A DNA stretch of 64,000 bases from Candidatus Sericytochromatia bacterium (GTDB lineage Bacteria > Cyanobacteriota > Sericytochromatia > S15B-MN24 > UBA4093): positions 64,228 to 128,227 of the forward strand of contig JAKFCT010000082.1 of the NCBI GenBank assembly GCA_036676495.1, read 5' to 3'. Below, piece by piece: positions 2,818 through 64,000 of this stretch (position 1 is its first letter; each line of letters begins with the position of its first letter). Made by a program: the position numbers and the translations under genes. The notes under the pieces are model-generated. The model saw only the letters and a list, made by a program, of their open reading frames with translations. It made no database searches and was not told where the DNA came from.

Positions 2818-4950
2818 ATGAGTAACGAAGTGAAGACCTACCGCTATACCCTCGATGGCCAGGAAATCGAGATGACCTTCGGCAAGTATGCCGGCCAGGC
2901 CAACTCCTCGGTTTTCGTCCAGTGCGGCGGCACCGCCGTCCTGGTGATGGCCACCATGAGCAAGAAGCCCCGTGAGGGAATCGACTTCTTCCCCCTGGTG
3001 GTGGACTACGAGGAGAAGCTTTACGCGGTGGGCCGCGTTCCGGGCAGCTTCCTGCGCCGCGAAGGCCGGGGTTCGGAGAATGCGATCCTCAGCGGCCGCC
3101 TGATCGACCGCTCGATCCGCCCGCTTTTCCCCAACGGCTTCCGTAACGACGTCCAGGTCGTCGCCTACGTCATGAGCTCGGATCAGCAGGTCCAGCCCGA
3201 CGTGCTCGCGATGGTCGGCGCCTCGGCCGCCCTGGTCACTTCGGACATCCCCTTCTCGGGCCCGGTCGCAGGCGTTCGCGTCGGCCGGATCGACGGCGAG
3301 TGGATCGTCAACCCCACCTTCTCCGAGATCGAAGAGTCCGACATGGACCTGGTCGTCGCCGGGACCGCCGACGCCGTCATGATGGTCGAGGCCGGCATCA
3401 ACATCGTCCCCGAGGACGAGGTCCTCGACGGCATCGCCGTGGGCTGGGACGCCGTCAAGGAACTCTGCGAGTGGCAGGAGCAGATCATCAAGGAGATCGG
3501 CAAGGCCAAGCTCGAAGTCTCCAACGTCGAGCTCGACCCCCGCATGGTGAACTTCCTCGAGGGCTACATGGATCGCATGACCACGGTCATGCAGAACCCC
3601 GACAAGGCTGCGCGCTCCAGCGCCGTCGAAGCCGTCAACGAGGAGATCACCGGCGCCCTGGCCGCCCTTCCCGAAGGCGACGAGCTCCGCGAGCTGGTCA
3701 TGGCCAACCCCAAGCTGATCGCCGATGGCCTCTACTGGATCGAGAAGAAGACCCTGCGCAAGCTGGTCACCGAGAAGGGCATCCGGATCGACGGGCGCAA
3801 GCTCAACGAGATCCGCGCCATCTCCGTCGAGGTCGGCGTGCTGCCCCGCACCCACGGCACCGGCCTCTTCCGCCGCGGCCAGACCCAGGTCCTCTCGGTG
3901 GCGACCCTCGGCTCGACCGGCGACGCCCAGAAGATCGACTCGATCGACCCCATCGCGACCAAGCGCTACATGCACCACTACAACTTCCCCGGCTTCTCGG
4001 TCGGTGAGGTGAAGCCCCAGCGCGGTCCCGGCCGCCGCGAGATCGGCCACGGCGCCCTCGCCGAGCGCGCCATCCTCCCGGTCCTCCCCTCGGCCGAGGA
4101 GTTCCCCTACGCCCTGCGCGTGGTCTCCGAGGTGCTCGAGTCCAACGGCTCGACCTCGATGGCCTCGACCTGCGGCTCGACGCTGGCCCTGATGGACGCG
4201 GGCGTCCCCCTCAAGGCTCCCGTCGCCGGCATCGCGATGGGTCTCATCAAGGAAGGCGAGCGCTTCGCCGTCCTCACCGACATCCAGGGCATCGAGGATC
4301 ACCTCGGCGACATGGACTTCAAGGTGACCGGCACCAAGGAAGGCATCACCGCCCTCCAGATGGACATCAAGATCCACGGCATCTCCCTCGAGATCATGGA
4401 GACCGCGCTGGAGCAGGCGCTCCAGGCCCGCCTCTTCATCCTCGACAAGATGACCGCGGTCATGCCCGAGCCCCGCACGGAGATGAGCCCGTACGCTCCG
4501 CGGATCATCACCCTCAAGATCAACCCCGACAAGATCGGCGCCCTGATCGGCCCCGGCGGCAAGAACATCAAGAAGATCGTCGAGGAGACCGGCGTCAAGA
4601 TCGACATCGAGGATGACGGCTCCGTCTTCATCACCACGGCGGACGCCGAGGCGGCCCGCAAGGCCACCGCGGCGGTGGGTCGCTTCACCCGCGAGGCCGA
4701 GGTCGGCGGTATCTACAAGGGCAAGGTCACCCGCCTCATGAACTTCGGCGCCTTCGTCGAGATCATGCCCGGCAAGGAAGGCCTGGTCCACATCTCGCAG
4801 CTCGCCCCCGAGCGGGTCGCGAAGGTCGAAGACGTCGTCAAGGTGGGCGACGAGGTGGTCGTCAAGGTCGTCGAGATCGACAACCAGGGCCGCGTCAACC
4901 TCACCATCAAGGGCGTCAACGCCGAAGAGAAGCAGAAGGTTGGCGTCTAG
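2818..4950 (+). CDS. pnp: Polyribonucleotide nucleotidyltransferase (PNPase)
   Basis: [21 protein letters not shown] and [10 protein letters not shown] motifs, KH and S1 domains; ATG at 2818 chosen for its SD. Confidence 0.99.
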
Positions 4951-4963
4951 TCGCTAGCCTCTC

Positions 4964-4998
4964 AGCGGACCGGGGAGCTTCGGCTTCCCGGTCCGTTT
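4964..4998 (+). terminator. Probable intrinsic terminator after pnp
   Basis: agcggaccggggagc-ttcg-gcttcccggtccgtt hairpin with a short T tail. Confidence 0.65.
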
Positions 4999-5014
4999 CC
5001 CCATGGGAGGGGCC

Positions 5015-5052
5015 GTGGGGCGGGCCTGTGGGGCGGGCCTCCGTGCCCGCCC
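5015..5052 (+). repeat. REP-like palindrome, family A (partial copy plus full copy in tandem)
   Basis: gtggggcgggcct followed by gtggggcgggcctccgtgcccgccc; recurs at 38093 and 52546. Confidence 0.7.
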
Positions 5053-5213
5053 TGCATCGATGGTTTCGTGCTTGAACTCAGTGGCTGCGGCCCTCACAGC
5101 CAGCCTGAATGCACGAGGCGGCGCGGTTTATGCATTAGAATGAGGGCAGTGATGACTCAGGATGGCTGCATCCACGTCGCGGGTGGGTTCCCGCGTAGCA
5201 AGGGCCGGCATTG

Positions 5214-6479
5214 ATGGAAAACCGTGAGCAGAAGTTCGTCCTCTCCAACGGGGTGAGGGTGCTGATCGAGGAAATCCCGCACGTCCGCTCCGCCTCGGTG
5301 GGGTTCTGGGTCGACGCGGGGACCAAGGATGAGTCCGCGTCGAACAACGGGATCTCCCACTTCATCGAGCACATGATGTTCAAGGGGACCGCCACGCGGA
5401 GTGCCCTCGAAATCGCCCGCTCGCTGGAGGATACCGGAGGCGCCCTGAACGCCTTCACCGACAAGGAGAACACCTGCTACTACGCGCGGGTGCTCGACGA
5501 TCAGGTGCCCTTGGCCATCGACGTGCTCTCCGACATGCTCATGCACTCCGCCATGGATCCCGCGGAGCTGAAGCGCGAGAAGCAGGTGGTGATCGAGGAG
5601 ATCAAGATGTACGAGGACCAGCCCGACGAGCTGGTTCAGGACATGTTCAGCGAGGCCTTCTGGGGCGACCACCCCCTGGGCCGCCCCATCGTGGGCACGC
5701 GCCAGACGGTCCGCGGCACCCGCCGCGAGGACATCTTCGATTACCTCGACCGCAACTACTCCCCCGACCGGATCGTCGTCTCGATCGCCGGGAACGTGGA
5801 TACCGCCCAGGTGCTCGACCAGCTCGAATCGACCATCGGCCAGCTGAAGCGCCCCGGCGAGCAGCGCCTCCTCACCGGGCCCGCGAACCTCATCAACACC
5901 AAGATCAAGTACAAGGACATCGAGCAGGTCCACCTCTGCATGGGCACCCCGGGCATCGTGGCCACCGACCCCGATCGCTACGTCCTCGCCGTGATCGACT
6001 CCATCCTCGGAGGCGGCATGAGCTCGCGCCTCTTCCAGGAAGTCCGCGAGAAGCGGGGCCTGGCCTACTCGATCTCCTCCTACGAGATCATGTACGCCAA
6101 GGCCGGCGTCTTCGGGGTCTACGCCGGCTGCTCCCCCAAGCATGCCGATCAGGTCGTGGACTTGGTGGTCTCCGAGCTGGAGAAGGTCAAGGCCGACGGC
6201 TTCTCGGACGAGGAGCTGCGACGCGCCAAGGATCAGCTCCGGGGCGGCATGCTGCTCGCGATGGAGACGCCGCGGCACCGCATGAGCCGCATGGCCCGTA
6301 ACGAGCTCTACTTCGGCCGCCTGGTCTCGACCGACGAGGTGATCGCCGACATGGAGCGCGTGACCCTGGCGGACGTCAAGCGGGTGGCCAACCGGATCTT
6401 CGATACCCAGCGGATGACCATGACGGTCGTCGGCCCGGTCCGCAAGATCAAGATGCCGACCCTGGAGAAGGCCAGCTAA
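5214..6479 (+). CDS. M16 (pitrilysin) family zinc peptidase
   Basis: HFIEHMMFKGT (HxxEH), NAFTDKE and GGGMSSRLFQEVREKRGLAY; conserved position downstream of pnp. Confidence 0.96.
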   Translation: MENREQKFVLSNGVRVLIEEIPHVRSASVGFWVDAGTKDESASNNGISHFIEHMMFKGTATRSALEIARSLEDTGGALNAFTDKENTCYYARVLDDQVPLAIDVLSDMLMHSAMDPAELKREKQVVIEEIKMYEDQPDELVQDMFSEAFWGDHPLGRPIVGTRQTVRGTRREDIFDYLDRNYSPDRIVVSIAGNVDTAQVLDQLESTIGQLKRPGEQRLLTGPANLINTKIKYKDIEQVHLCMGTPGIVATDPDRYVLAVIDSILGGGMSSRLFQEVREKRGLAYSISSYEIMYAKAGVFGVYAGCSPKHADQVVDLVVSELEKVKADGFSDEELRRAKDQLRGGMLLAMETPRHRMSRMARNELYFGRLVSTDEVIADMERVTLADVKRVANRIFDTQRMTMTVVGPVRKIKMPTLEKAS

Positions 6480-6620
6480 TCTTCCCTGTCTTGTCCCCCC
6501 TTGATGGGGGGACCGGCGAAGCCGAGGGGGGTGTTAGCCGGCGAAGCCATGGCGCTCCGCGATAGGGAACCTGGGAGCAGTAACACCCCCCTGTGGTCCC
6601 CCCGTTGAGGGGGGACAAGA
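6477..6620. repeat. MITE/REPIN-like element, copy 1
   Basis: Closely similar to 14875-15040 over most of its length; inverted ends tcttgtcccccc/ggggggacaaga. Confidence 0.8.
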
Positions 6621-6628
6621 GACGTCAC

Positions 6629-7060
6629 ATGCACGACACCATCACCATTCGCTTCCAGTGCCTCAGCGATCGCGCCCGTCCTCCCCTGGTCAGCCAGGAA
6701 GGGGATGTGGCGGCCGATCTCTTCGCCGCCGCCGAGGTGGTGATCCCGGCACGCGGGCGCGCCATGGTTCCCACGGATCTGGCGCTCGAGTTGCCGCCTG
6801 GCTTCCGGGCTCGGATCCACTCGCGCTCGGGCCTCAGCCTGAAGCATGGCATCGAGGCGGGGGCGGGGCTCATCGACAACGGCTATCGCCATGCGGTCGG
6901 CGTCCTTCTGTACAACCACTCGGACGTCGATTACTCTGTGGCCGAGGGCGATCGCATCGCCCAGCTCTGCATCGAGCGCTACACGCATCCGATCTTCGAA
7001 GCGGTGGAGCGGGTTGCACCCACGCCGCGGACCGAAGGCTGGGGCTCTTCCGGATCGTAA
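6629..7060 (+). CDS. dut: dUTP diphosphatase (trimeric)
   Basis: Motifs ADL, SRSG, GLIDNGYR, GDRIAQ and GWGSSG. Confidence 0.92.
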   Translation: MHDTITIRFQCLSDRARPPLVSQEGDVAADLFAAAEVVIPARGRAMVPTDLALELPPGFRARIHSRSGLSLKHGIEAGAGLIDNGYRHAVGVLLYNHSDVDYSVAEGDRIAQLCIERYTHPIFEAVERVAPTPRTEGWGSSGS

Positions 7061-7161
7061 GTCCGACGACGGAGAAAATCGAGGCGAAATGCGGCTCTTC
7101 CCCCATCCTGAGAGGCGAGGCCTTGGTGTATGATGAGGGGGATGAAAGGAGCCGGTGCGCC

Positions 7162-8070
7162 ATGACTGACGGGGCCGAGACCCAGCAGGCCGAGACCCAG
7201 ACCACCGAGACCCGAGGGGCCAAGACCCCGCGGGCCGGGACCCAACAGGCCGGGACCGATGCGGCTCCGGGGGCCAAGATTCGCGTGGCCGTGGCCGGAG
7301 CGTCCGGCAAGATGGGGCGCGAGATCGTCAAGGCCATCGCGCAGTCGTCCGAGATGACTTTGGTGGCGGCGATCGCCCGCCGTCAGGCCGGCGAGGACGC
7401 CGGGACGGTCGCGGGCCTCTCTCCCTTGGGCGTCTCGATCGTGCCGCAGCTCAGCGAGGCCCTCGTGCAGGGCGGCATCGACGTCCTGGTGGACGTGACC
7501 ACGCCGCAGGCCGCGGCCGGCCATGCCCTGGAAGCCCTGACGGCCCGAGTTCGCCCCGTGATCGGCACGACCGGCCTCAGCGCCCATGAGATCCAGGAGA
7601 TCACGCACGCCAGCCAGAAGCGGGGCCTGGGAGCCATCCTCGCCCCCAACTTCGCCATCGGCGCCATCCTCATGATGAAGTTCGCCCAGGAGGCGGCCAA
7701 GCACTTCGCGAACGCCGAGATCCTGGAGCTGCATCATAACCAGAAGGCGGATGCCCCCTCGGGGACGGCCCTCAAGACCGCGGAGCTGATGCGGGAGTCG
7801 CGGGCCGCCTTCGGGCTGGACAACGCGCATGAGGTATCGAAGATCGCCGGCGCGCGCGGGGCCGAGGCCCCGGGCGGCATCCACATCCACAGCATCCGGC
7901 TTCCCGGCCTGGTCGCGCACCAGGAGGTCATCTTCGGAGGCCTCGGCCAGACGCTCACGATCCGGCATGATTCCCTCAGCCGGGAGAGCTTCATGCCGGG
8001 CGTCCTCTTCTCGGTTCGCAAGGTCATGGAGCTCGACCATTTCGTCTACGGCCTGGAGCAGATCCTCTAG
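7162..8070 (+). CDS. dapB: 4-hydroxy-tetrahydrodipicolinate reductase
   Basis: VAVAGASGKMG, VIGTTG, APNFAIG and ELHHNQKADAPSGTA; repetitive N-terminal extension. Confidence 0.97.
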   Translation: MTDGAETQQAETQTTETRGAKTPRAGTQQAGTDAAPGAKIRVAVAGASGKMGREIVKAIAQSSEMTLVAAIARRQAGEDAGTVAGLSPLGVSIVPQLSEALVQGGIDVLVDVTTPQAAAGHALEALTARVRPVIGTTGLSAHEIQEITHASQKRGLGAILAPNFAIGAILMMKFAQEAAKHFANAEILELHHNQKADAPSGTALKTAELMRESRAAFGLDNAHEVSKIAGARGAEAPGGIHIHSIRLPGLVAHQEVIFGGLGQTLTIRHDSLSRESFMPGVLFSVRKVMELDHFVYGLEQIL

Positions 8071-55427: not shown

Positions 55428-56606
55428 TTGAGCGTCAAGAAGCGTAAACAAGCCAGAGCGCTGCAAGATCTCGTCCGGCGCATCCCCCTCACCAACCTGC
55501 TCGGCCTCCTCATCATCTACTTCCTGGCCAGCAACATGGCTGGAACGTTCGAGCTGATGATGGAGGGCTCGACCGGATGGTGGGTCGGCCTGCTGATCGG
55601 CGGCCTCGCGGGCGTCTTCCTCTTCGGAGCCCTCCAGAAGCACGTCCAGCGTTACGAGAGCAAGTTCAAGGCCCGCATCCAGGACGTGGCGCAAAAGATG
55701 GAGTCGAGCGCCGACGAAGAGGACAAGAGCCAGAACAAGCTGCTCGATGCCTTCGAGATCCAGTACCTGGGCGGCCACCCCGGTTTGAGGGTCTCGGACA
55801 AGCTCGTCTTCGGCACCTTGGAGGTCCGCGAGAAGTCCCTGATCTTCAAAAACAAGGAATCGCGCATCAAGATGTCGCTCGCGCGCCTCAAGCGCGTCTC
55901 GGTCGAGCCCGATCGCCTCATGCGCCACAAGAAGCTCCCCAACGTGAAGCTTCCGCCCATGCCGGTCCTCTCGAAGCGCATCCTCAAGCTCGGCTACGAG
56001 CAGCTCCGCAAGCTCCAGCGCTACGTCCTGCTGGACTACCAGGACGACATGGGCGAGCGTCACCTGATCCTCTTCTATCCGATGATCGGCCACCCGCTCT
56101 TCGGCAACCCCCCGAAGGCCAAGGCCATCAAGGTCGCGATCGACGAGCCCCTGAGCAAGTACCAGAAGGACGCGAAGAAGGGCACCAAGAGTTTTGCCAA
56201 GGAGGGCGGCACCGGCAAGCTCTCCCGGCCTCCCGCCAAGGAGCCTCTCCCCCAGCAGGCGGAGACCACGGTTCCGCAGGCTCCTCCTGCTGCGGCAAGG
56301 CCCGCACCCGCCCCTCGCCCGGCCGCTCCGCAGCCGGCACCCATGCCTCCCGCGCCGGTCAGCGACCTGCGCTACCAGGTGAGCCTGGTGGGAGCCGGGA
56401 GCACCCCTGAGGAGCAGCAGGCGGTCGCCCAGCAGATGGCGCAGCTCTTCGGACTCCCCCTGGAGAAGGCGCAAGCGGCCGTCCAGCGCATGCCGCTGGT
56501 GGTTAAGCGTAATCTCACCGAGGCGCAGGCCGATGAGCTCTACCAGTCCTTGAGCGCAACGGGTGCGCGCGTCTCGGTCGAGGCGATGCAGGCTGCCGCC
56601 CGTTAG
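55428..56606 (+). CDS. Membrane protein with two TMs, a PH-like domain, Pro-rich linker and L7/L12-C-terminal-like domain
   Basis: Two hydrophobic helices, YLGGHP..GTL, and YQVSL...FGLPLEKAQAAVQRMPLVVKRNLTEAQA...GARVSVE. Confidence 0.65.
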   Translation: MSVKKRKQARALQDLVRRIPLTNLLGLLIIYFLASNMAGTFELMMEGSTGWWVGLLIGGLAGVFLFGALQKHVQRYESKFKARIQDVAQKMESSADEEDKSQNKLLDAFEIQYLGGHPGLRVSDKLVFGTLEVREKSLIFKNKESRIKMSLARLKRVSVEPDRLMRHKKLPNVKLPPMPVLSKRILKLGYEQLRKLQRYVLLDYQDDMGERHLILFYPMIGHPLFGNPPKAKAIKVAIDEPLSKYQKDAKKGTKSFAKEGGTGKLSRPPAKEPLPQQAETTVPQAPPAAARPAPAPRPAAPQPAPMPPAPVSDLRYQVSLVGAGSTPEEQQAVAQQMAQLFGLPLEKAQAAVQRMPLVVKRNLTEAQADELYQSLSATGARVSVEAMQAAAR

Positions 56607-56682: not shown

Positions 56683-56720
56683 AAAAACGGGGCTGTCTCA
56701 CGCGTGTGAGACAGCCCCGT
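56683..56720 (-). terminator. Intrinsic terminator of the TonB/HmuY operon
   Basis: acggggctgtctcac-gcgt-gtgagacagccccgt with a T-run on the minus strand. Confidence 0.8.
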
Positions 56721-56737: not shown

Positions 56738-57982
56738 CTACTGGATGCTGCTGCGATCGATCACGGAAACCGTGTTGTCGCTGATGTTGGAGACATAGGC
56801 CTTGGTCGCGGTGAAGGCCATCTTGTGGTGGCCGTTCCCGACCGTGATCACGGCGATCGCCTTCTGGGTCTCGGCGTCGAGCACCGTCACCGACCCGTCG
56901 CCGTCGCCGCCCACCCAGACCTGCTGGGCGATGGTCGCATCGTCGTGACCTTCATGGGCGACGCGGTACCCGGAGGCATGGGCCGGCTTGTCGACGAGGT
57001 AGATGTGGACCGGCTTGGAGGCGGTGCTACCGCCGCGCCCGACGGCGACCTTGGAGTGCAGCGTGCCCGCGCCCAGGTCGATGATGGCGACTTCGCCCGC
57101 ACCGGCGCACGTGACGTAGGCGTAACGGCCATCCCCACGGATGACGAGATCGGTGGGCGTGGAGCCCACGCTCAGCTTGCCGAGCTGCTTCTTGGCCTTG
57201 AGGTCGTAGACGATGACGGTATTGGAGTTCTTGTTGCCGTAGACGAGAAGGGCGCCGTCGTTGAGCGTGGAGATGCCGATGGGACCGGGAGCGTTCCCGT
57301 CCTGAAGCGTCGTCGCTGCGGTCTCGCCGAGCTTCACATAGGAGACGGCGTTGTCGTTGGCGTTGGGGACGGCGAGGTAGCCGCCGCCGACGGCCAGAAA
57401 GCCCGCGACGAAGGCCTCCGCCCCGTCACGGGCGACGGTCAGCTTCTCCACCGTGGCCGGGGCCTCGAAGCCGTTGTTCCAGGTGATCTTCGCGACGTTC
57501 TCGCTGGCCGTGGTGCCGATGGCGAGGTAGGCGGTCTTCTCATCGGCCCAGACGATCTTCGAGCCGGGGGCCTTGCCGAGCGCCACCGTGTCGACGATGG
57601 TCTTGCTCTCGCCCTTGACCACGCGAAGGAGGTTGGCCTTGGAGTCCATGGTGACGGCGTACTTCCCGTCCTTGGTGGCCTGGGCCTGGGTCGGGCTGTT
57701 GCTCTCCTTGCCTCCTTCGAAGCTGAGGGTCTCGCTGACCGTGTCGGTGGCGGGATCGATGATCGAGATGTCTCCCGACTTGGGGTTGGAGTTGATGATC
57801 ATGCCGCCGGCGTAGGTGATGCCGTGGGGGCCCTGGCCGACCGCGAGGGTCTTGGCGTGGCTGAGCTGCTTGATGCCGTCCGGGAGGCCGGACTGGTTGG
57901 GCGACTGCGCGAAGCAAGCGCTGAGGAGGAGGGAGCCGGTCACCACGAAGGCGGCCAGCCCGCGAGAGGCGAGGCGGTGCAT
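56738..57982 (-). CDS. YVTN/YncE-like beta-propeller lipoprotein
   Basis: Lipobox LSAC; blades VGQGPHG, YAYVTCAG..EVAIID and AYVSNISDNTVSVID. Confidence 0.85.
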   Translation of the reverse strand: MHRLASRGLAAFVVTGSLLLSACFAQSPNQSGLPDGIKQLSHAKTLAVGQGPHGITYAGGMIINSNPKSGDISIIDPATDTVSETLSFEGGKESNSPTQAQATKDGKYAVTMDSKANLLRVVKGESKTIVDTVALGKAPGSKIVWADEKTAYLAIGTTASENVAKITWNNGFEAPATVEKLTVARDGAEAFVAGFLAVGGGYLAVPNANDNAVSYVKLGETAATTLQDGNAPGPIGISTLNDGALLVYGNKNSNTVIVYDLKAKKQLGKLSVGSTPTDLVIRGDGRYAYVTCAGAGEVAIIDLGAGTLHSKVAVGRGGSTASKPVHIYLVDKPAHASGYRVAHEGHDDATIAQQVWVGGDGDGSVTVLDAETQKAIAVITVGNGHHKMAFTATKAYVSNISDNTVSVIDRSSIQ

Positions 57983-58023
57983 GGAGGATGAGTCCTTTCG
58001 GATGCGTGACGCGAGGCGTTGGC

Positions 58024-59010
58024 TTACATGAAGCGGTAGTACGAGAGGATGAAGTTCTGATCGGTCATGGCGTTGACCCAGGGGCCGGGCGACGGATCGG
58101 CGCCGTAGGCAAGGCGGACGCCCTGGCCTTCCCAGAACCGCCACTCGATGCTGGGAGTCAACTTGATCTTGCCGAGCTTGGAGGCGGTGGGGGAGGTGTC
58201 CCGGGCGGCCATTTCCCCGTAGAAGGAGGAGGCGCCCAGGCCGAGGCGCCAGGACGGGACGAACTCCCAGTTGGCCTGGAATTGCCCGAGGAGGGACTGA
58301 CCGACGTAGAAGGCCGTCGAGACGTCGGCGGCAGGCTCCGAGAAGGGGCGCTGGTAGCCGACTCCCGCCGAGAGCTCGACGGGGCCGAGCATCTTCAGGG
58401 CCGAGAGACCGATCTGGGCGCTGAAGACGCCGCTGCCGGTGTAGGTCGCGGCCGACGCGCCGGTGGCGTTGCCCGTGGGCAGCATCAATCCGCCCCAGAG
58501 GGCCAGGGACGGCCAGAAATCCTCGCCCCGGTAGGCGACGTAGGAGGTTTGCAGGCTGATGTCACCCATGCCGGCGCCGGACTGCTGCTCGGACGCTCCG
58601 TCCATGGTGTCGATGGGGACGACCGCTCCCTGAGCGGCCCACTGGGCGCCGTTCAGCATGTTGGCGGCCACGGGAACCAAGAGGCCGAAGGTCCAGTCGT
58701 TGCCCGGATAGTAGGTCACGCCCAGGTTGGCCTGGAAGGTGTTGAGCGACGAGCCTTGGGGCTTGGGCGTCCAGGTGCCGTTCTCGTTGAAGCTGCCGGT
58801 GACGTCGCGGGCGCTCAGCGAGGTCTGGTAGAGGAAGTTGCCGTCGGAGGCGAAGAGGGTCGAGGCGCCGGCCACGGAGGTCATCTCCGCGCCGGAGCCC
58901 GGCAAGGCGCAGCCGCAGTTGCAGGCGTGAGCGGGGTCGGCGAGCATGCCGAGCGAAAGCAAGGCTACGGTGCCGAAGGCGAGGGGGTTGAATCGAATGG
59001 CCATGGCCAT
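58024..59010 (-). CDS. Putative outer-membrane beta-barrel ('transporter'/MetA-pathway-like) with N-terminal CxCxC
   Basis: Signal peptide ending AHA then CNCGC; GMGDISL, LMLPTG and alternating amphipathic strands. Confidence 0.65.
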   Translation of the reverse strand: MAMAIRFNPLAFGTVALLSLGMLADPAHACNCGCALPGSGAEMTSVAGASTLFASDGNFLYQTSLSARDVTGSFNENGTWTPKPQGSSLNTFQANLGVTYYPGNDWTFGLLVPVAANMLNGAQWAAQGAVVPIDTMDGASEQQSGAGMGDISLQTSYVAYRGEDFWPSLALWGGLMLPTGNATGASAATYTGSGVFSAQIGLSALKMLGPVELSAGVGYQRPFSEPAADVSTAFYVGQSLLGQFQANWEFVPSWRLGLGASSFYGEMAARDTSPTASKLGKIKLTPSIEWRFWEGQGVRLAYGADPSPGPWVNAMTDQNFILSYYRFM

Positions 59011-59095
59011 TCACTCCTTTCCGTGTCGAGTGGAGAGCGAGGACGGGGTCGAGTGGAGGTCAAGCATGATTGGACCTCCCTCGACCCTTGTTTGT

Positions 59096-60862
59096 CTAAT
59101 GGGAGGAGTGGGCGCCGGCCGCGTCGGGCGATGGGCCGAGGGCGGCGATCCCGGCCTGGATCTGCGCCTCGAACCACGCGACGAACTTGGGATGCGGGGC
59201 GAAGCCGCTGCCGTGCGCGAAGGTGAGCCCTTCCAGCAGCCGTTTCTCGGGGCCTTGAGCCGTGGTGCGCGCGGGGATCACGATCACGCGGCCGCCATCC
59301 TGGTTGCCCTCCTCGACGAACTTCCGGACCTTGGCGATCGAGGGTTCGCGGAGATCCGGCCAGTCTTCCCGCCAGGTGGCCGTCTTGATCGCCCGGAACT
59401 TGCCGCCGCCCTTGGCGCGCATGGTGCTCGCCAGGGACTCCAGGTTCTGCTCCCACTCGGAGTTGCGGGCGTTGCTCGAGGTTCCGTGCGCGACGAGGAT
59501 GACCGTCTCCTTCTGGGCGTCCTGAGAGAGCGCGTTGGCGCGATCGAGCAGGGCCTCGGCGAAGAGCGGGCTCGCGTCGAGGCCGCCCACGGTCGTCATC
59601 AAGGCCGAGCTGAGGATGCGCTGGTTGCTCATCATCATGCCGTGGCCTCCGTGGCCGCCATGCCCGCCATGGCCCCCGTGCCCACCCGCCATGGCATGGT
59701 GGCCCATGGCCGCATGGTGGGCGGCGGACTCGACGTCATTGCCGATCATGCGCTCGACATCCGACTTGAAGCTGTCCGAGAGGCCGAAGACGCGCACGAT
59801 GACAATAGCCTTGGCCCCGCGGCTTTCGAGCCTGCGAACGGCGCGCTCCGTGACGATCGGATCGGCCATGGAGAGGGCGGGCTCGATCATGTAGCGGGAG
59901 GTGAGCGGCTTGACGGCGTTGATCATGGTCTCGTTCCAGTGGTGGTCGGAGCCGTGGGCCATGAGGATCACCCCGATCTCCTCGGGGCGCAAGGTCGCCG
60001 CCCGGTTGGCCTCGCGGCCGAACCAAAGCGGCAAGGCCGCATGCGTGGCCAGCTCACCGGCGATCAGCTCGACGCCCTTGGGAGCGGCCTGCTGAAGTGA
60101 CGCATCGAAGCTCATCATGCCGTCGAGCTTCTTGCCGAGGTGGAAGGGCACGATGACAGGACGCTCGGCTCCCTTGGCGGCAGCTTCGAGCTCGCGCTTC
60201 AGCGTGTCGGGGCCCGCGTTCACGACGACCGTCACGGCCTTGAAGTCGAGCCCGTCGGCAGCCTGCTTGGCAATCCGCTCCAGGTCGGCCCGCATGGCCT
60301 GCTGGGACTTGGCGTCCCCGGCTCCGGTGCTCACGACGATCGCCGTCCGGCCTTGGCGCTGGGCGACGGCCGATAGGCGCTGGGTCAGCATCTCGACGGC
60401 GAAGTAGGAGTCGCCGAAGAGCGGGCTCCAGACAAGCTGCGCGCCGGCCCTGGCCTGTGCGTCCTTGAGGATCGCCTGCACGCGCCGGTAGCCCGGATCG
60501 GCGTCAGAGAGGAAGAAGGGAAGCACGGCCACGCGCTTGGCGCCGGATTTGACCAGCGACTTGACGGCCTCGGTCACGCTCTTCTGGGTCCGATCGTCCG
60601 TGGTGTGGACGAGGGTGGCGTTCCGGCCCTTGGCGAAGGCTTCGAACGCATCCTGAAGCTCGGTGTTGCCGAGAAAGCCGCGGTCCGGCGCCACGAGCAG
60701 GTAGGCGGTGTCGGAGGCGGCGATCGGGGCGCCGGCATGGCCATGGTGGCCGTGGTGGGCAGCGGGCGCTGCGAAAGCGGGGACGCTGGACAGCATCCCG
60801 AGGCTCACCATGGCCGAAAGGGAGCCGGCGCTCAGAACCTTGCGAATCTTGGTCTTGGTCAC
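59096..60862 (-). CDS. Exported tandem CbiX/SirB-like class II chelatase, His-rich
   Basis: Signal peptide ending AFA; chelatase-like units (VAVLPFFL, IVPFHL, VILMAHGS, VILVAHGT, FAPHP); His/Gly/Met-rich loop. Confidence 0.75.
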   Translation of the reverse strand: MTKTKIRKVLSAGSLSAMVSLGMLSSVPAFAAPAAHHGHHGHAGAPIAASDTAYLLVAPDRGFLGNTELQDAFEAFAKGRNATLVHTTDDRTQKSVTEAVKSLVKSGAKRVAVLPFFLSDADPGYRRVQAILKDAQARAGAQLVWSPLFGDSYFAVEMLTQRLSAVAQRQGRTAIVVSTGAGDAKSQQAMRADLERIAKQAADGLDFKAVTVVVNAGPDTLKRELEAAAKGAERPVIVPFHLGKKLDGMMSFDASLQQAAPKGVELIAGELATHAALPLWFGREANRAATLRPEEIGVILMAHGSDHHWNETMINAVKPLTSRYMIEPALSMADPIVTERAVRRLESRGAKAIVIVRVFGLSDSFKSDVERMIGNDVESAAHHAAMGHHAMAGGHGGHGGHGGHGGHGMMMSNQRILSSALMTTVGGLDASPLFAEALLDRANALSQDAQKETVILVAHGTSSNARNSEWEQNLESLASTMRAKGGGKFRAIKTATWREDWPDLREPSIAKVRKFVEEGNQDGGRVIVIPARTTAQGPEKRLLEGLTFAHGSGFAPHPKFVAWFEAQIQAGIAALGPSPDAAGAHSSH

Positions 60863-60949
60863 GTGTCTTCTATCTCCTGAAGGGGATCCCAGCGAGATCC
60901 CCGGTGCGTCGCCTCGGCGACGGAAGCGGGCTAAGGGGTCAGCCAGGGG

Positions 60950-61585
60950 TTACGGGGCCGCGGGGGCTTCGATCTCGGCCCACTTGAACGCGATCATCCG
61001 CGAGGTGCCGTTCGCGTCCTGGTAGGAGAGGAACTGGACCTTCATGTACTTGCCGGCCGTCGTCTTCACGACGTAGACGACGTTCGGGTTGATCGAGACT
61101 TTGTGGTCCGCGTAGGTGTACCAGGAACCGTTTTCCTTGAGGGCGTAGACGGTCTTGCCGTTGACCGAGGCGTCGGTGAGGTAGGTCGCGGCGGGCGCCT
61201 GCTTCAGGGCGTTGAAGTCCTGATCGGCGAGACGGGTGATCACGACGCCGCCCTTGCCGTGAATGCCGCCGTTCAGCTTGGTGTCCAGGGCCTTGAAGCC
61301 GAGATCCCAGCCCGTGGAGTCTTCAGGGGTGGCGATCGTGACTTCCTTGGCCTCGGCGAAGCTGAAGTAGTGGTACTGGTCCGCTTTGGCGGCGTCGGCG
61401 TCCATGGTGAGGGTTCGGACCTCGCCGTCGATCGTGACCGTTCCGGTTTCGGTCCCGGTCTTCTCCTGCGTATCGGGGTTACTTCCGGCGATGCTCGGGG
61501 CGCAGGCCGTGAGGCTGGCCGCGAAGAGGCCGGCGAAGAGCGCGCGGGTCACGGTGTGGTTCAAAGGCAGGCGCATGATGATCAT
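60950..61585 (-). CDS. HmuY family heme-binding lipoprotein
   Basis: Lipobox LTAC; YFSF, WDLGF, WYTY and VYVVKTTAGKYMKVQFLSY. Confidence 0.85.
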   Translation of the reverse strand: MIIMRLPLNHTVTRALFAGLFAASLTACAPSIAGSNPDTQEKTGTETGTVTIDGEVRTLTMDADAAKADQYHYFSFAEAKEVTIATPEDSTGWDLGFKALDTKLNGGIHGKGGVVITRLADQDFNALKQAPAATYLTDASVNGKTVYALKENGSWYTYADHKVSINPNVVYVVKTTAGKYMKVQFLSYQDANGTSRMIAFKWAEIEAPAAP

Positions 61586-61612
61586 TCGTACTCCAATGGG
61601 GTGAGTGGGGGG

Positions 61613-63550
61613 TCAGAACTTCGCGGTGAGGCCCGCGAGGACGGTCAGGGGTTGCATGGGCGCGTAGGCGGGATCGTTCACGTTGAGGAGGTTGGTTCCC
61701 TGGACGTGGGCGGTGATCCGCTCGGTGACGGACTTGGTGATCCGGGCTTCGAGGGTGGTGTAGGGGCTGGCCATGGTCGTGGACGTCACGCCGTTGGCCT
61801 CGCTATAGAAGGGGCGCGCGCCGTTCCAGGCGCCGCGGGCGTAGAGCCCGAGCCCCCACGGATCGTGCTGGTAGCGGGCCGTGAGGGTGGCCTTGTGGAG
61901 GGGGCGGCCCTCCAAGGCGAGGCCGGAGTTGCGATCGAGGGTGTCGTTGAGGGTGTAGCCCGGCTCCAGGGTGAGGCCCTCGAGGGGCTGGAACTGGATC
62001 GAGGCCTCGACTCCGCGGGTCATGGCCGAGGAGACGTTGATGTAGGAGTACTGGGTGATGGCCTCGGCGGTGCCGGCGCGGGTCAGCTGGGTCTGGATGA
62101 GGTTGTTGACCTCGTTGTGGTAGAGGTTGGCGGCGAGCGAGGCCCAGGAGGTGAGGCGGGTCTCGGCGCCGAGGTTGTAGCTCGTGGAGGTCTCGGGGCC
62201 GAGATGAGGGTTGCCGATGACCTCGTAGCCCGCGCTGACGTTCTGGAAGCTCATCAAGAGCTCCTTGAAGTCGGGGGCGCGGAAGCCCGTGCCCAGGCTG
62301 GCGCGTAGCGTCACAGTCGAGAAGGGGTCGTAGCGCAGGGCGATCTTGGGGGCCAGGTGGGTCCCGTACCGGGAGTCGAGGTCGGCGCGGACGCCGGGAA
62401 CGAGGACGAGCTGGGAGAGGCCGAAGGCCTGCCATTCGTCCTGGCTGTAGAGCGCGGCGCGGAAACGCTCGCCGAACGCTGCGTTCAGCCGATCGGCGTG
62501 GAGGCGCTCGTAGGCCAGCTCGGCGCCGGTCGTCAGGATATGTGACTCGCCGAGCGCGCGCTCTTCCTGGATCTGCAGCTGCGCGAGCTGATCGAGGGTC
62601 TCCTCGTAGACATCCTGGATGTCCACCTTGCGCTGGTCCTTCTTGTACTGATCCCGGTAAAGGTTGTAATAGGCGGCCATCGAGAGGTTGCTGAAGCCCG
62701 GGATCGACAGCTGGGGTTCGACCGAGAGGCTCAGCGTCTCGGTCTGGTTGATGCGGTCGAAGACGGCCAGGCCACTCGTTTCGATTCCGTCTTGGCGGCG
62801 GGTCAGATAGTCGACATGCGTCTTGATCTGGGTGTCGCGGGAGATCTTGAAGGTGCTGTTGTTGGAGACGGTGAAGTCTTGGTAGGCGTTGCCGGTGGTT
62901 CCGAGCGTTCCGGGGGTGAGGTCGTAGGCGTCGGCGCGGCGGAAGCCCGCGGAGACGAGCGTGTCCGCGGCGGCGTGGGTGATTCCCATGGTGCCGTTGA
63001 CCACGGCGGTGTTGAGGGCGCCGATCATGGTCTGTCCTTCGAAGGAAAGGGGCGCCTTGGCCTTGCGGGTGATGAGGTTGACGACGCCCGCCATGGCCTC
63101 GGAACCGTAGAGGGCCGACGAGCCGCCGCGGACGATCTCGACGCGCTCGAGGCTGTCGATCGGATAGCGGGTCAGGTCGACCGTGCCGCTGAGGCGGCCG
63201 GTGACACGGCGCCCGTCGACGAGGATGAGGACGTGCTTGGAGTCGAGTCCCTGGAGCCGGATGCCCTCGCCTTGCAAGGCGGAGAAGACCTCGATGCCCG
63301 TGCGAGAGGAGAGCAGGTCGGCGACGTTGACGGCGCCGGAGGCCTCGATCTCGCTGCGGGGGATGACCTCGGTGGCGACCGGGGTATCCGCGAGGCGCCG
63401 TTCGGTGCGGGTGCCGGTCACCACGACCTCATCCAGCCGTGGGGAGTAGGCTTGCTCGGTGGCCTGAGCCGGCGGCGCACCGACGAAGAGGGTGAGGGCG
63501 GCCACAGTCGTGGCGGCTTGGAGCGGAGGGCTGAAGCGGGGCGCGGTCAT
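61613..63550 (-). CDS. TonB-dependent outer-membrane receptor
   Basis: EVVVTGTRTER, LILVDG, ERVEIVRGGSSALYGSEAMAGVVNLIT, GFRAP, NPHL and C-terminal F; ATG at 63550. Confidence 0.95.
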   Translation of the reverse strand: MTAPRFSPPLQAATTVAALTLFVGAPPAQATEQAYSPRLDEVVVTGTRTERRLADTPVATEVIPRSEIEASGAVNVADLLSSRTGIEVFSALQGEGIRLQGLDSKHVLILVDGRRVTGRLSGTVDLTRYPIDSLERVEIVRGGSSALYGSEAMAGVVNLITRKAKAPLSFEGQTMIGALNTAVVNGTMGITHAAADTLVSAGFRRADAYDLTPGTLGTTGNAYQDFTVSNNSTFKISRDTQIKTHVDYLTRRQDGIETSGLAVFDRINQTETLSLSVEPQLSIPGFSNLSMAAYYNLYRDQYKKDQRKVDIQDVYEETLDQLAQLQIQEERALGESHILTTGAELAYERLHADRLNAAFGERFRAALYSQDEWQAFGLSQLVLVPGVRADLDSRYGTHLAPKIALRYDPFSTVTLRASLGTGFRAPDFKELLMSFQNVSAGYEVIGNPHLGPETSTSYNLGAETRLTSWASLAANLYHNEVNNLIQTQLTRAGTAEAITQYSYINVSSAMTRGVEASIQFQPLEGLTLEPGYTLNDTLDRNSGLALEGRPLHKATLTARYQHDPWGLGLYARGAWNGARPFYSEANGVTSTTMASPYTTLEARITKSVTERITAHVQGTNLLNVNDPAYAPMQPLTVLAGLTAKF

Positions 63551-63575
63551 CGAAGGCGTCTCCAGGTGAGCTAGA

Positions 63576-63654
63576 TGCGAATTATTCTCAGTTTCAGGCA
63601 AGCATAAAATACTTGAGAATGATTTGCAAGTATCATGCGATTTATTCTCAAGTA
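63576..63654. promoter_or_regulatory. Three Fur-box-like 7-1-7 palindromes
   Basis: tgcgaattattctca(63576), tgagaatgatttgca(63614) and tgcgatttattctca(63636) in an AT-rich island upstream of the receptor. Confidence 0.75.
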
Positions 63655-63913: not shown

Positions 63914-64000
63914 ATGCTTCGGGCCTATGAAACTATGTACATCCTGCGCCCCACGATCGAAGAAGAGGCCGTGGATGCAGTGGTTACCAAGTTCGCGGAC
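63914..64000 (+). CDS. rpsF: 30S ribosomal protein S6 (5' part only)
   Basis: Manual translation MLRAYETMYILRPTIEEEAVDAVVTKFAD after a GGAGGTG SD. Confidence 0.93.
   Translation, partial: MLRAYETMYILRPTIEEEAVDAVVTKFAD

Follow-up and report, generated by a model that had tools for sequence, protein, structure and literature searches.

We analysed a 64,000-nucleotide (nt) stretch of DNA from a Candidatus Sericytochromatia soil bacterium (contig JAKFCT010000082.1 of assembly GCA_036676495.1), here called the window, which lies at the end of its contig. On the minus strand it carries a five-gene operon encoding a TonB-dependent receptor, a HmuY-family lipoprotein, an exported CbiX-type class II chelatase-fold protein, an outer-membrane barrel and a beta-propeller lipoprotein. 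Gene context gives good support to a role of this locus in the acquisition of iron from heme. We tentatively propose that it encodes a Fur-repressed system that takes iron from heme by de-chelation in the periplasm, a reading that we regard as possible and somewhat short of probable. Heme-iron acquisition with an extracytoplasmic protein of the chelatase superfamily is of a kind already known; what is new here is the class II tandem architecture, its spread beyond Bacteroidota and its pairing with two types of heme receptor. A literature search, with subscription journals outside its coverage, turned up no publication that describes an exported tandem CbiX family next to heme receptors.

The host genome assembly is 4.1 Mb in size, has a G+C content of 66% and is 92% complete. 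The five open reading frames (ORFs) are co-oriented, run from 63550 down to 56738 and are separated by 27, 87, 85 and 41 nt. Upstream of them lie three Fur-type boxes (63636–63650, 63614–63628 and 63576–63590, minus strand), each a 7-1-7 inverted repeat of the TGAGAATnATTCTCA type. A census of this palindrome in the host genome found 12 copies, of which 3 are perfect, 5 have one mismatch and 4 have two; three of the 12 are the operon's own. A hand estimate from base composition gives about 0.001 perfect copies expected by chance. Among the genes preceded by the other sites are feoA-feoB, a PepSY_TM gene and two operons, receptor-TonB-ExbB and porin-FMN_bind-PepSY-ApbE, along with genes for a di-heme cytochrome c peroxidase and glycolate-oxidase-like Fe-S/FAD proteins. 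Because the same box precedes feoAB, the receptor-TonB-ExbB operon and PepSY_TM genes, we read the leader box as an iron box; the whole set is a predicted iron (Fur) regulon and not a zinc, nickel or cobalt regulon. Orthologous boxes lie upstream of the receptor in both other genomes that carry the operon (loci L004 and L005). Among the boxes we read a weak sigma-70-like promoter, TTGCAA (63624–63629) and TATGCT (63601–63606) spaced by 17 nt, which matches the consensus at 8 of 12 positions and falls below the threshold of the promoter scan. Box 2 overlaps the −35 element of this candidate and box 3 lies just downstream of it. Since box 3 ends only 26 nt before the receptor ATG, the leader has no room for a riboswitch, and no Rfam family, whether cobalamin riboswitch or other RNA leader, reached its gathering score in the window.

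The unit ends in an intrinsic terminator (56683–56720, minus strand) with a 15-base-pair G+C-rich stem, a 4-nt loop and a T5 tract, which begins 18 nt past the stop codon of the propeller gene. A 146-nt stretch containing it folds with −86.8 kcal/mol (z −6.9), and none of 200 shuffled sequences was as stable. All five products carry an export signal, as judged by eye: Sec-type signals in the receptor (AQA/TEQ), the chelatase-fold protein (AFA/AP) and the barrel (AHA/C), and lipoboxes in the HmuY-like protein (LTAC) and the propeller (LSAC). Neither a heme oxygenase nor a HemS or ATP-binding cassette (ABC) transporter gene is present among the ORFs and Pfam matches of the five-gene unit. In all these respects the operon is as a first-pass annotation, made from the sequence alone, had described it: five exported products encoded between Fur-like boxes and a single terminator, with no heme oxygenase, HemS or ABC transporter gene in the unit and no cobalamin riboswitch.

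The host genome holds four Fur-family genes. Two of them (C59:31162–31464 and C69:72868–73149, both outside the window) are directly preceded by a second type of box, TTAGAATnATTCTAA-like (C59:31086 and C69:73211), which suggests self-regulated PerR- or Zur-like paralogues whose operator would differ from the TGAGAAT-type iron box.

Domains were assigned with the curated cut-offs of Pfam and NCBIfam. The first gene (61613–63550, minus strand) encodes a receptor of 645 amino acids with a Plug domain (E 1e-23) and a TonB_dep_Rec_b-barrel domain (E 1e-45). It resembles HmuR-type receptors, yet it stays under the curated heme-receptor cut-offs: it scores 185.1 bits on the TonB-hemin model of the TIGR01785/TIGR01786 set (cut-off 316.85) and 162 bits on the second heme/hemoglobin-receptor model (cut-off 323.75). 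On the TonB-B12 model it scores 199 bits against a cut-off of 599.7. The HmuY-family lipoprotein (211 amino acids; 60950–61585, minus strand) follows 27 nt downstream of the receptor gene. It matches PF14064 with 77.5 bits (cut-off 27) and, among structures in the PDB, 8b6a (E 1e-11) and HmuY of Porphyromonas gingivalis, 3h8t (E 2e-9). It is the sole HmuY in the host genome, and its His161 is kept among the HmuY-like domains of chelatase loci. We presume that it is a ligand-capture protein at the cell surface.

The third gene (59096–60862, minus strand) encodes a 588-residue protein whose CbiX match (PF01903, 44.6 bits against a cut-off of 22) covers residues 66–159 and is the only one in the host genome. 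Its score on CbiK (PF06180), 17.9 bits, is under the cut-off of 26.2, and its signal contains no cysteine at the cleavage site. The AlphaFold2 model (predicted local distance difference test, pLDDT, 85.4; predicted template modelling score, pTM, 0.84) contains four alpha/beta domains and two disordered His-rich tracts, at residues 33–47, with the motif HHGHHGH, and 380–410. In structure comparison, module 1 (approximately residues 48–291) and module 2 (approximately 292–578) each align to whole class II chelatases. The alignments to SirB, CpfC, CbiK, CbiX and FetB span 211–236 residues with Z scores of 15–18 and root-mean-square deviations of 2.9–4.0; the Z scores are 18 for SirB, 16 for CpfC/HemH, 15.9 for a denitrifier CbiX and for P. 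gingivalis FetB, and 15.8 for the periplasmic CbiK of Desulfovibrio vulgaris. Sugar- and solute-binding proteins appear among the lower-ranked Foldseek matches. On this model the protein consists of two complete class II chelatase folds in tandem, and we regard the fold as certain. The first-pass annotation had called it a CbiX-type class II protein; the PF01903 match bears this out, although the protein is not a simple CbiX but two whole modules in tandem. A Sec-type N-terminal signal, again judged by eye, is found across the family as well as in the operon protein, unlike the cytoplasmic enzymes of siroheme, B12 and F430 synthesis.

The canonical metal residues of class II chelatases are a histidine after strand 1 and a second histidine or a glutamate after strand 3 of the active domain. 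In an alignment of 41 family members, H303 and H459 (each in an AHG motif), TWREDW (within TWREDWPD) and IPART...GPE are invariant. Near-invariant are H241, H308, H557, M249, M250, M332 and a GHxxGHGHG loop (H401, H404 and H407). Among solved structures, the Ni/Co chelatase CfbA is the closest in sequence and has a His-rich loop at the same place; a weak match to CfbA is also seen in NCBIfam. E539 may be the counterpart of the ferrochelatase glutamate, and an intact catalytic site is plausible.

The family is large. A word-indexed search returned 417 homologues, the best 120 of which are full-length, 45–89% identical to the operon protein and all matched by PF01903 (120/120). A profile of the 41 sequences, run against 1.84 billion representatives, gave 279 clusters (50% identity) at E ≤ 1e-30 and 1,155 at E ≤ 0.001, so that the family counts at least 279 clusters. 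Single-module proteins of about 300 amino acids are among these matches (also at loci L067, L068 and L076), in L076 directly behind a receptor. Because they match only the second half of the tandem (profile positions approximately 283–555), module 2 may be the ancestral working unit.

Genomic context was examined at 73 chelatase loci from many phyla, 45 of which are well flanked, with at least 5 kilobases (kb) on both sides. The genes around the chelatase are receptors and iron genes, not genes of biosynthesis. Of the 73 loci, 44 have a receptor ORF no more than 6 kb away (33 of the 45 well-flanked ones), and 35 have one on the same strand at a distance of up to 1.5 kb. HmuY (PF14064) adjoins the chelatase in 11 of the 73 loci, in about six phylum-level groups: the carriers belong to Sericytochromatia, Balneolales, Rhodothermales, Spirochaetia, Thermodesulfobacteriota and Dadabacteria, with one metagenome-assembled genome (MAG) labelled Enterobacterales, and some of these HmuY copies are tandem HmuY repeats. 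The trio of receptor, HmuY and chelatase recurs in several phyla. At loci without HmuY, all five receptors sampled exceed the curated cut-offs of TIGR01785/TIGR01786; these come from Stagnimonas, Nitrosospira, an unclassified Pseudomonadota MAG, Thermoanaerobaculia and Nitrosomonas europaea (L007, L011, L018, L030 and L035), the last scoring 550.8 bits on the heme/hemoglobin-receptor model. Partner receptors in the sampled Proteobacteria score far under the cut-off of the B12 model. None of the five HmuY-linked receptors sampled, nor the operon receptor, is above the heme-receptor cut-offs. The 4.5 kb upstream of the chelatase contain sites that match the classic Fur consensus at 14 or more of 19 positions in 35 of 66 loci and, after shuffling, in 1 of 66 (110 sites in all versus 9.4 in shuffles). 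Neighbours in 20 annotated loci include ferritin-like proteins (two loci), encapsulin, an FTR1-cytochrome c protein, a lysine/ornithine (siderophore) N-monooxygenase, TonB/ExbB and a heavy-metal-binding domain protein, whereas FecCD or Peripla_BP_2 is found in none of the 112 neighbour proteins.

In three Marinacidobacterales MAGs (L056, L057 and L061; ORF 4592–7648) the receptor ORF contains an additional N-terminal CbiX (residues 46–139) before the Plug domain, which is either a true fusion or two genes without an intervening stop codon in the ORF call. Similarly, DUF3501 precedes Plug and barrel in one frame in Methylibium (L009, ORF 4824–7859), as a fusion or as adjacent genes. DUF2325 proteins flank the chelatase-receptor pair in N. 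europaea (L035) and in L018 and may be a conserved extra partner in Nitrosomonadaceae. A neighbour cluster of about 444 amino acids recurs in 10 chelatase loci.

In the host genome, 92% complete as it is, no match was found to heme oxygenase (PF01126), HemS (PF05171) or CobN (PF02514). The first-pass annotation had placed a class II protein in the position of HmuS. The iron boxes of the leader, the recurrence of the trio, the heme-type receptors (5/5), the lack of CobN, heme oxygenase and HemS matches in the genome and the lack of a riboswitch therefore make this a fair description. Of 30 carrier genomes, one has a canonical heme oxygenase and one has HemS; among 14 controls the counts are three and one. 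True FeoB, counted only at E < 1e-40 since the Pfam FeoB_N model also matches other GTPases, is present in 10 of the 30, and we rejected FeoB as a universal partner on this count. The host genome has one FecCD permease/ABC pair of unassigned substrate, unlinked to the operon; at its locus neither a Fur box, with up to 3 mismatches allowed, nor a riboswitch was found, the only Rfam matches there being tRNAs. Neither ferrochelatase nor uroporphyrinogen decarboxylase was found in the host assembly, in which ALAD is present. We considered heme auxotrophy of the host and dropped it: ferrochelatase is present in 11 of 12 relatives searched, both other operon carriers included, and an assembly gap is likelier. 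The two missing genes probably lie in an unassembled stretch.

In the mechanism that we propose, Fur would leave the three boxes covering the promoter when iron is low. The HmuY-like lipoprotein would then capture heme, or a close metalloporphyrin, at the cell surface, and the TonB-dependent receptor would move it into the periplasm. There the Sec-exported tandem protein would bind heme and most likely carry out the reverse ferrochelatase reaction, releasing Fe(II) and porphyrin; the Fe(II) could enter the cell via FeoAB, whose genes carry the same box in the host genome. The reaction would likely take place in module 2, whose cleft retains His303, His459 and Glu539. The metal that is released may pass to the conserved His-rich loop, and module 1, from which the HGS histidine has been lost, may only bind the ligand. 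The analysis shows the gene content, the fold, the box motif with its regulon and the conserved linkage to HmuY and to heme-type receptors; which ligand is bound, which way the reaction runs and how the iron travels are inferred, and so is de-metallation. The precedent comes from Bacteroidota, in which HmuY and HmuR deliver heme to the periplasm and HmuS, according to the accessible part of PMC12583661, strips iron from heme there and leaves protoporphyrin while FeoB imports Fe(II).

A number of observations weigh against this proposal. The operon receptor is far under the heme-receptor cut-off (185 versus 316.85 bits), its top NCBIfam model is a B12 receptor, itself far under its cut-off, and 12 of the 45 well-flanked loci have no receptor nearby. 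In the chelatase, module 1 has DRGF where CbiX has HGS, and the position of the second histidine, His75 of CfbA, is Ser364 in module 2. Profile comparison (hhalign) with the relatives' own ferrochelatases (HemH) gave only weak local matches, and for this reason no residue-level mapping to ferrochelatase is offered. The rarity of heme oxygenase and HemS is weak evidence because the base rates in the controls are low (3/14 and 1/14), and these negatives cover heme oxygenase and HemS, IsdG, HugZ and ChuW not having been searched for. With FeoB in only 10 of 30 carrier genomes, the FeoB route for iron is not general. Finally, FetB/IhtB, the nearest analogue that has been tested, inserts Co and Mn into a porphyrin analogue, and the available text of PMC13065792 reports no reverse activity on haemin. 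The first-pass annotation had suggested that heme is captured, imported and de-metallated in the periplasm. The heme-iron context stands, but the de-metallation step is weakened by the non-conserved second histidine and by the behaviour of FetB.

Alternatively, the chelatase-fold protein could be a non-catalytic heme-binding or shuttle protein of the periplasm, taking heme over from the receptor and passing it to an unlinked inner-membrane importer or to periplasmic users while iron is freed elsewhere. The class II chelatase fold is common to periplasmic binding proteins, as stated in the accessible portion of PMC12583661, and the lower ranks of the Foldseek matches agree. The catalytic histidines are incomplete, H241, M249, M250 and M332 would suit axial ligation of heme, and both D. 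vulgaris periplasmic CbiK and FetB bind metalloporphyrins according to the text available of PMC13065792. The FecCD/ABC pair of the host genome could serve as the importer; however, its locus carries neither Fur box nor riboswitch, and no importer gene was seen in the 20 annotated loci. The near absence of heme oxygenase and HemS from carrier genomes also argues against a shuttle, and the strict conservation of H303, H459, E539 and TWREDWPD across phyla is more like that of an active site than of a pocket. We consider a shuttle unlikely, though it deserves weight beside heme de-chelation.

It is also conceivable that the protein acts in the forward direction, as a chelatase or metal exchanger for Co, Ni or Mn on imported porphyrins or corrinoid precursors, in which case the operon would serve cobalt, nickel or corrinoid supply and not that of iron. 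The closest solved structure by sequence is CfbA, His-rich loop included, with the weak NCBIfam match in addition; FetB has Co and Mn chelatase activity (accessible part of PMC13065792); and the operon receptor scores slightly higher on the B12 than on the heme model. Yet the leader has neither a detected cobalamin riboswitch nor room for one, its boxes are common to feoAB and other iron genes, and Fur-consensus boxes recur across the family. The sampled proteobacterial receptors pass the heme cut-offs and stay far under that for B12, the neighbours are iron-storage and iron-transport genes, and synthesis of a metalloporphyrin under iron starvation would have no clear use, which together make the forward reaction quite improbable. 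Still less do we expect a periplasmic metal chaperone without any action on tetrapyrroles, in which free Fe(II) or some other divalent metal, having arrived through the receptor or porins, would be bound by the His tracts and the cleft. The conserved GHxxGHGHG loop and the N-terminal HHGHHGH would fit such a protein, as would the 12 of 45 well-flanked loci without a receptor and neighbours that handle free iron (ferritin-like, FTR1 and heavy-metal-binding domain proteins). A chaperone would leave the systematic pairing with heme-type receptors and HmuY unexplained, however, and a full two-domain chelatase cleft has been kept twice.

The last two genes of the operon encode a MetA-type (Phenol_MetA_deg) outer-membrane barrel of 328 amino acids (58024–59010, minus strand; PF13557, 36.9 bits against 22) and a YVTN/YncE-like beta-propeller lipoprotein of 414 amino acids (56738–57982, minus strand; TIGR02276, 58 bits against 27.85, and PF21783, 27.7 against 27.1). 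The first-pass annotation had counted them as extra parts of the system, and we rejected them as conserved parts of a heme system: in tblastn searches they stand beside the chelatase only in L004 and L005, and across the class they occur alone. The co-occurrence search thus recovered receptor, HmuY and chelatase together across phyla, but all five genes in this order, among the loci compared, only in these two Sericytochromatia relatives besides the host. Within the class, the chelatase is present in 3 of 41 genomes searched. Among 301 genomes sampled across the phylum, 35 have the barrel, and every one of these belongs to the same class. In seven of eight further loci without receptor, HmuY or chelatase, the barrel is adjacent to the propeller in the same order. 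The host genome has a second barrel-propeller pair on another contig. A genome of the same genus without the heme genes has the orthologous pair, at 72% and 68% identity, followed by a SCO1/SenC copper-chaperone gene, and no Fur-type box was found in the 650 base pairs upstream of it, even at 4 mismatches. Judged by this distribution, the barrel and propeller are a separate, class-wide pair that adjoins the heme module in no more than three genomes, and we conclude that a three-gene heme module has been placed ahead of a resident two-gene pair.

Within the 85-nt spacer between the chelatase and barrel genes (59011–59095, minus strand) lie a GGAG ribosome-binding site and an imperfect hairpin that lacks a T-run; neither a Fur box nor a terminator-like site was found in the spacer. 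Because no terminator was found between the two genes, the pair is probably read through and co-transcribed under Fur control in the three genomes. The mature N-terminus of the barrel has a CxCxC motif (CxCxC-LPGS) that is conserved in its orthologues (L101–L108); an atlas look-up names the protein only as a "transporter family protein" with PF13557. An involvement of the pair with copper or some other metal is no more than a guess. Thioredoxin-fold genes adjoin the pair or the barrel in two further loci.

Upstream of the operon, a divergent ORF (63914–64000, plus strand), beginning MLRAYETMYILRPTIEEEAVDAVVTKFAD and cut by the contig end, encodes what we take to be the N-terminus of ribosomal protein S6. 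The same sequence opens the contig of the relative with locus L004. The convergent neighbour on the other side (55428–56606, plus strand) encodes a 392-residue protein of odd architecture, with a predicted membrane segment (by eye), a Pro/Ala-rich linker and a C-terminal domain resembling ribosomal protein L7/L12 (29.5 bits).

The extraction of heme iron without heme oxygenase was settled only recently, in gut Bacteroidota, through the class I protein HmuS, and for 25 years heme de-chelation has been suspected, without proof, in exported class II chelatases, among them IhtB/FetB and periplasmic CbiK. It is possible, if rather doubtful, that the tandem family as a whole consists of hitherto unrecognised, widespread periplasmic, ATP-independent class II heme de-chelatases, Fur-controlled and docked to heme receptors, which replace heme oxygenase, HemS and HmuS in many environmental Gram-negative bacteria. 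The lineages concerned include the ammonia oxidisers Nitrosomonas and Nitrosospira, Xanthomonadales, Acidobacteriota, Rhodothermales, Balneolales, Nitrospirota and Sericytochromatia. In that case, extraction of heme iron that spares the porphyrin would be general in soil and water and not a speciality of Bacteroidota. De-chelation of heme by the tandem protein would represent a second, ATP-independent porphyrin-sparing route and would bear on the iron nutrition of nitrifiers in soil and wastewater. Should the protein only bind heme, it would still be a new periplasmic partner of heme receptors. The family is testable, as culturable nitrifiers are among its carriers.

Parts of the operon can be compared with several known systems. 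E. coli YncE is an iron-regulated periplasmic beta-propeller, which the accessible part of PMC5120174 describes as overproduced in a fur mutant. The operon propeller likewise lies behind Fur boxes and is just over the YNCE Pfam cut-off; the match is marginal (27.7 versus 27.1 bits), and unlike YncE the operon protein is a lipoprotein and has a MetA-type barrel as its partner; in the same-genus genome the pair has no Fur box. With the cytoplasmic class II chelatases CbiX, SirB and CfbA and with HemH/CpfC, the tandem protein shares the fold, the first-strand histidine (H303 and H459 in AHG) and the His-rich loop at the position seen in CfbA. It differs from them in being exported, duplicated in tandem and encoded in a non-biosynthetic context, with Ser364 in place of the second catalytic histidine and a module 1 that lacks the histidine of HGS. 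The periplasmic CbiK of D. vulgaris (CbiKP) is a class II chelatase that is likewise exported; it binds metalloporphyrin, and its structures 2xvx and 2xvz align with Z scores of 15.7–15.8, although it consists of a single CbiK-family module.

The Iht system of P. gingivalis (IhtA with IhtB/FetB) also pairs a TonB-dependent receptor with an exported class II chelatase-fold protein. IhtB/FetB is a CbiK-like lipoprotein long proposed to act on heme as a reverse ferrochelatase, in the portion available of PMC12094164. Its structure (9b86) aligns to module 1 with a Z score of 15.9. FetB is a single module of the CbiK family, whereas the operon protein is a tandem with a Sec signal without lipobox and a CbiK score under the cut-off, and the operon has no counterparts of the IhtCDE ABC genes. 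The Bacteroidota Hmu system (HmuY-HmuR-HmuS-HmuTUV) differs in that HmuS is a class I, CobN-like protein, reportedly of about 1,400 amino acids, in contrast to the ATP-independent class II CbiX-type tandem of 588 residues found here. Genes corresponding to HmuT, HmuU and HmuV (ATPase, ExbB-like proteins) are absent from the operon, the order is receptor and then HmuY, and the host is of the Sericytochromatia type. In both systems, nevertheless, an extracytoplasmic protein of the chelatase superfamily comes after a HmuY lipoprotein and the TonB-dependent receptor next to it, in a locus without heme oxygenase, and uptake of Fe(II) by FeoB is proposed in both, the roles of HmuS and FeoB in heme use by Bacteroidota being described in the accessible parts of PMC12583661 and PMC6460266.

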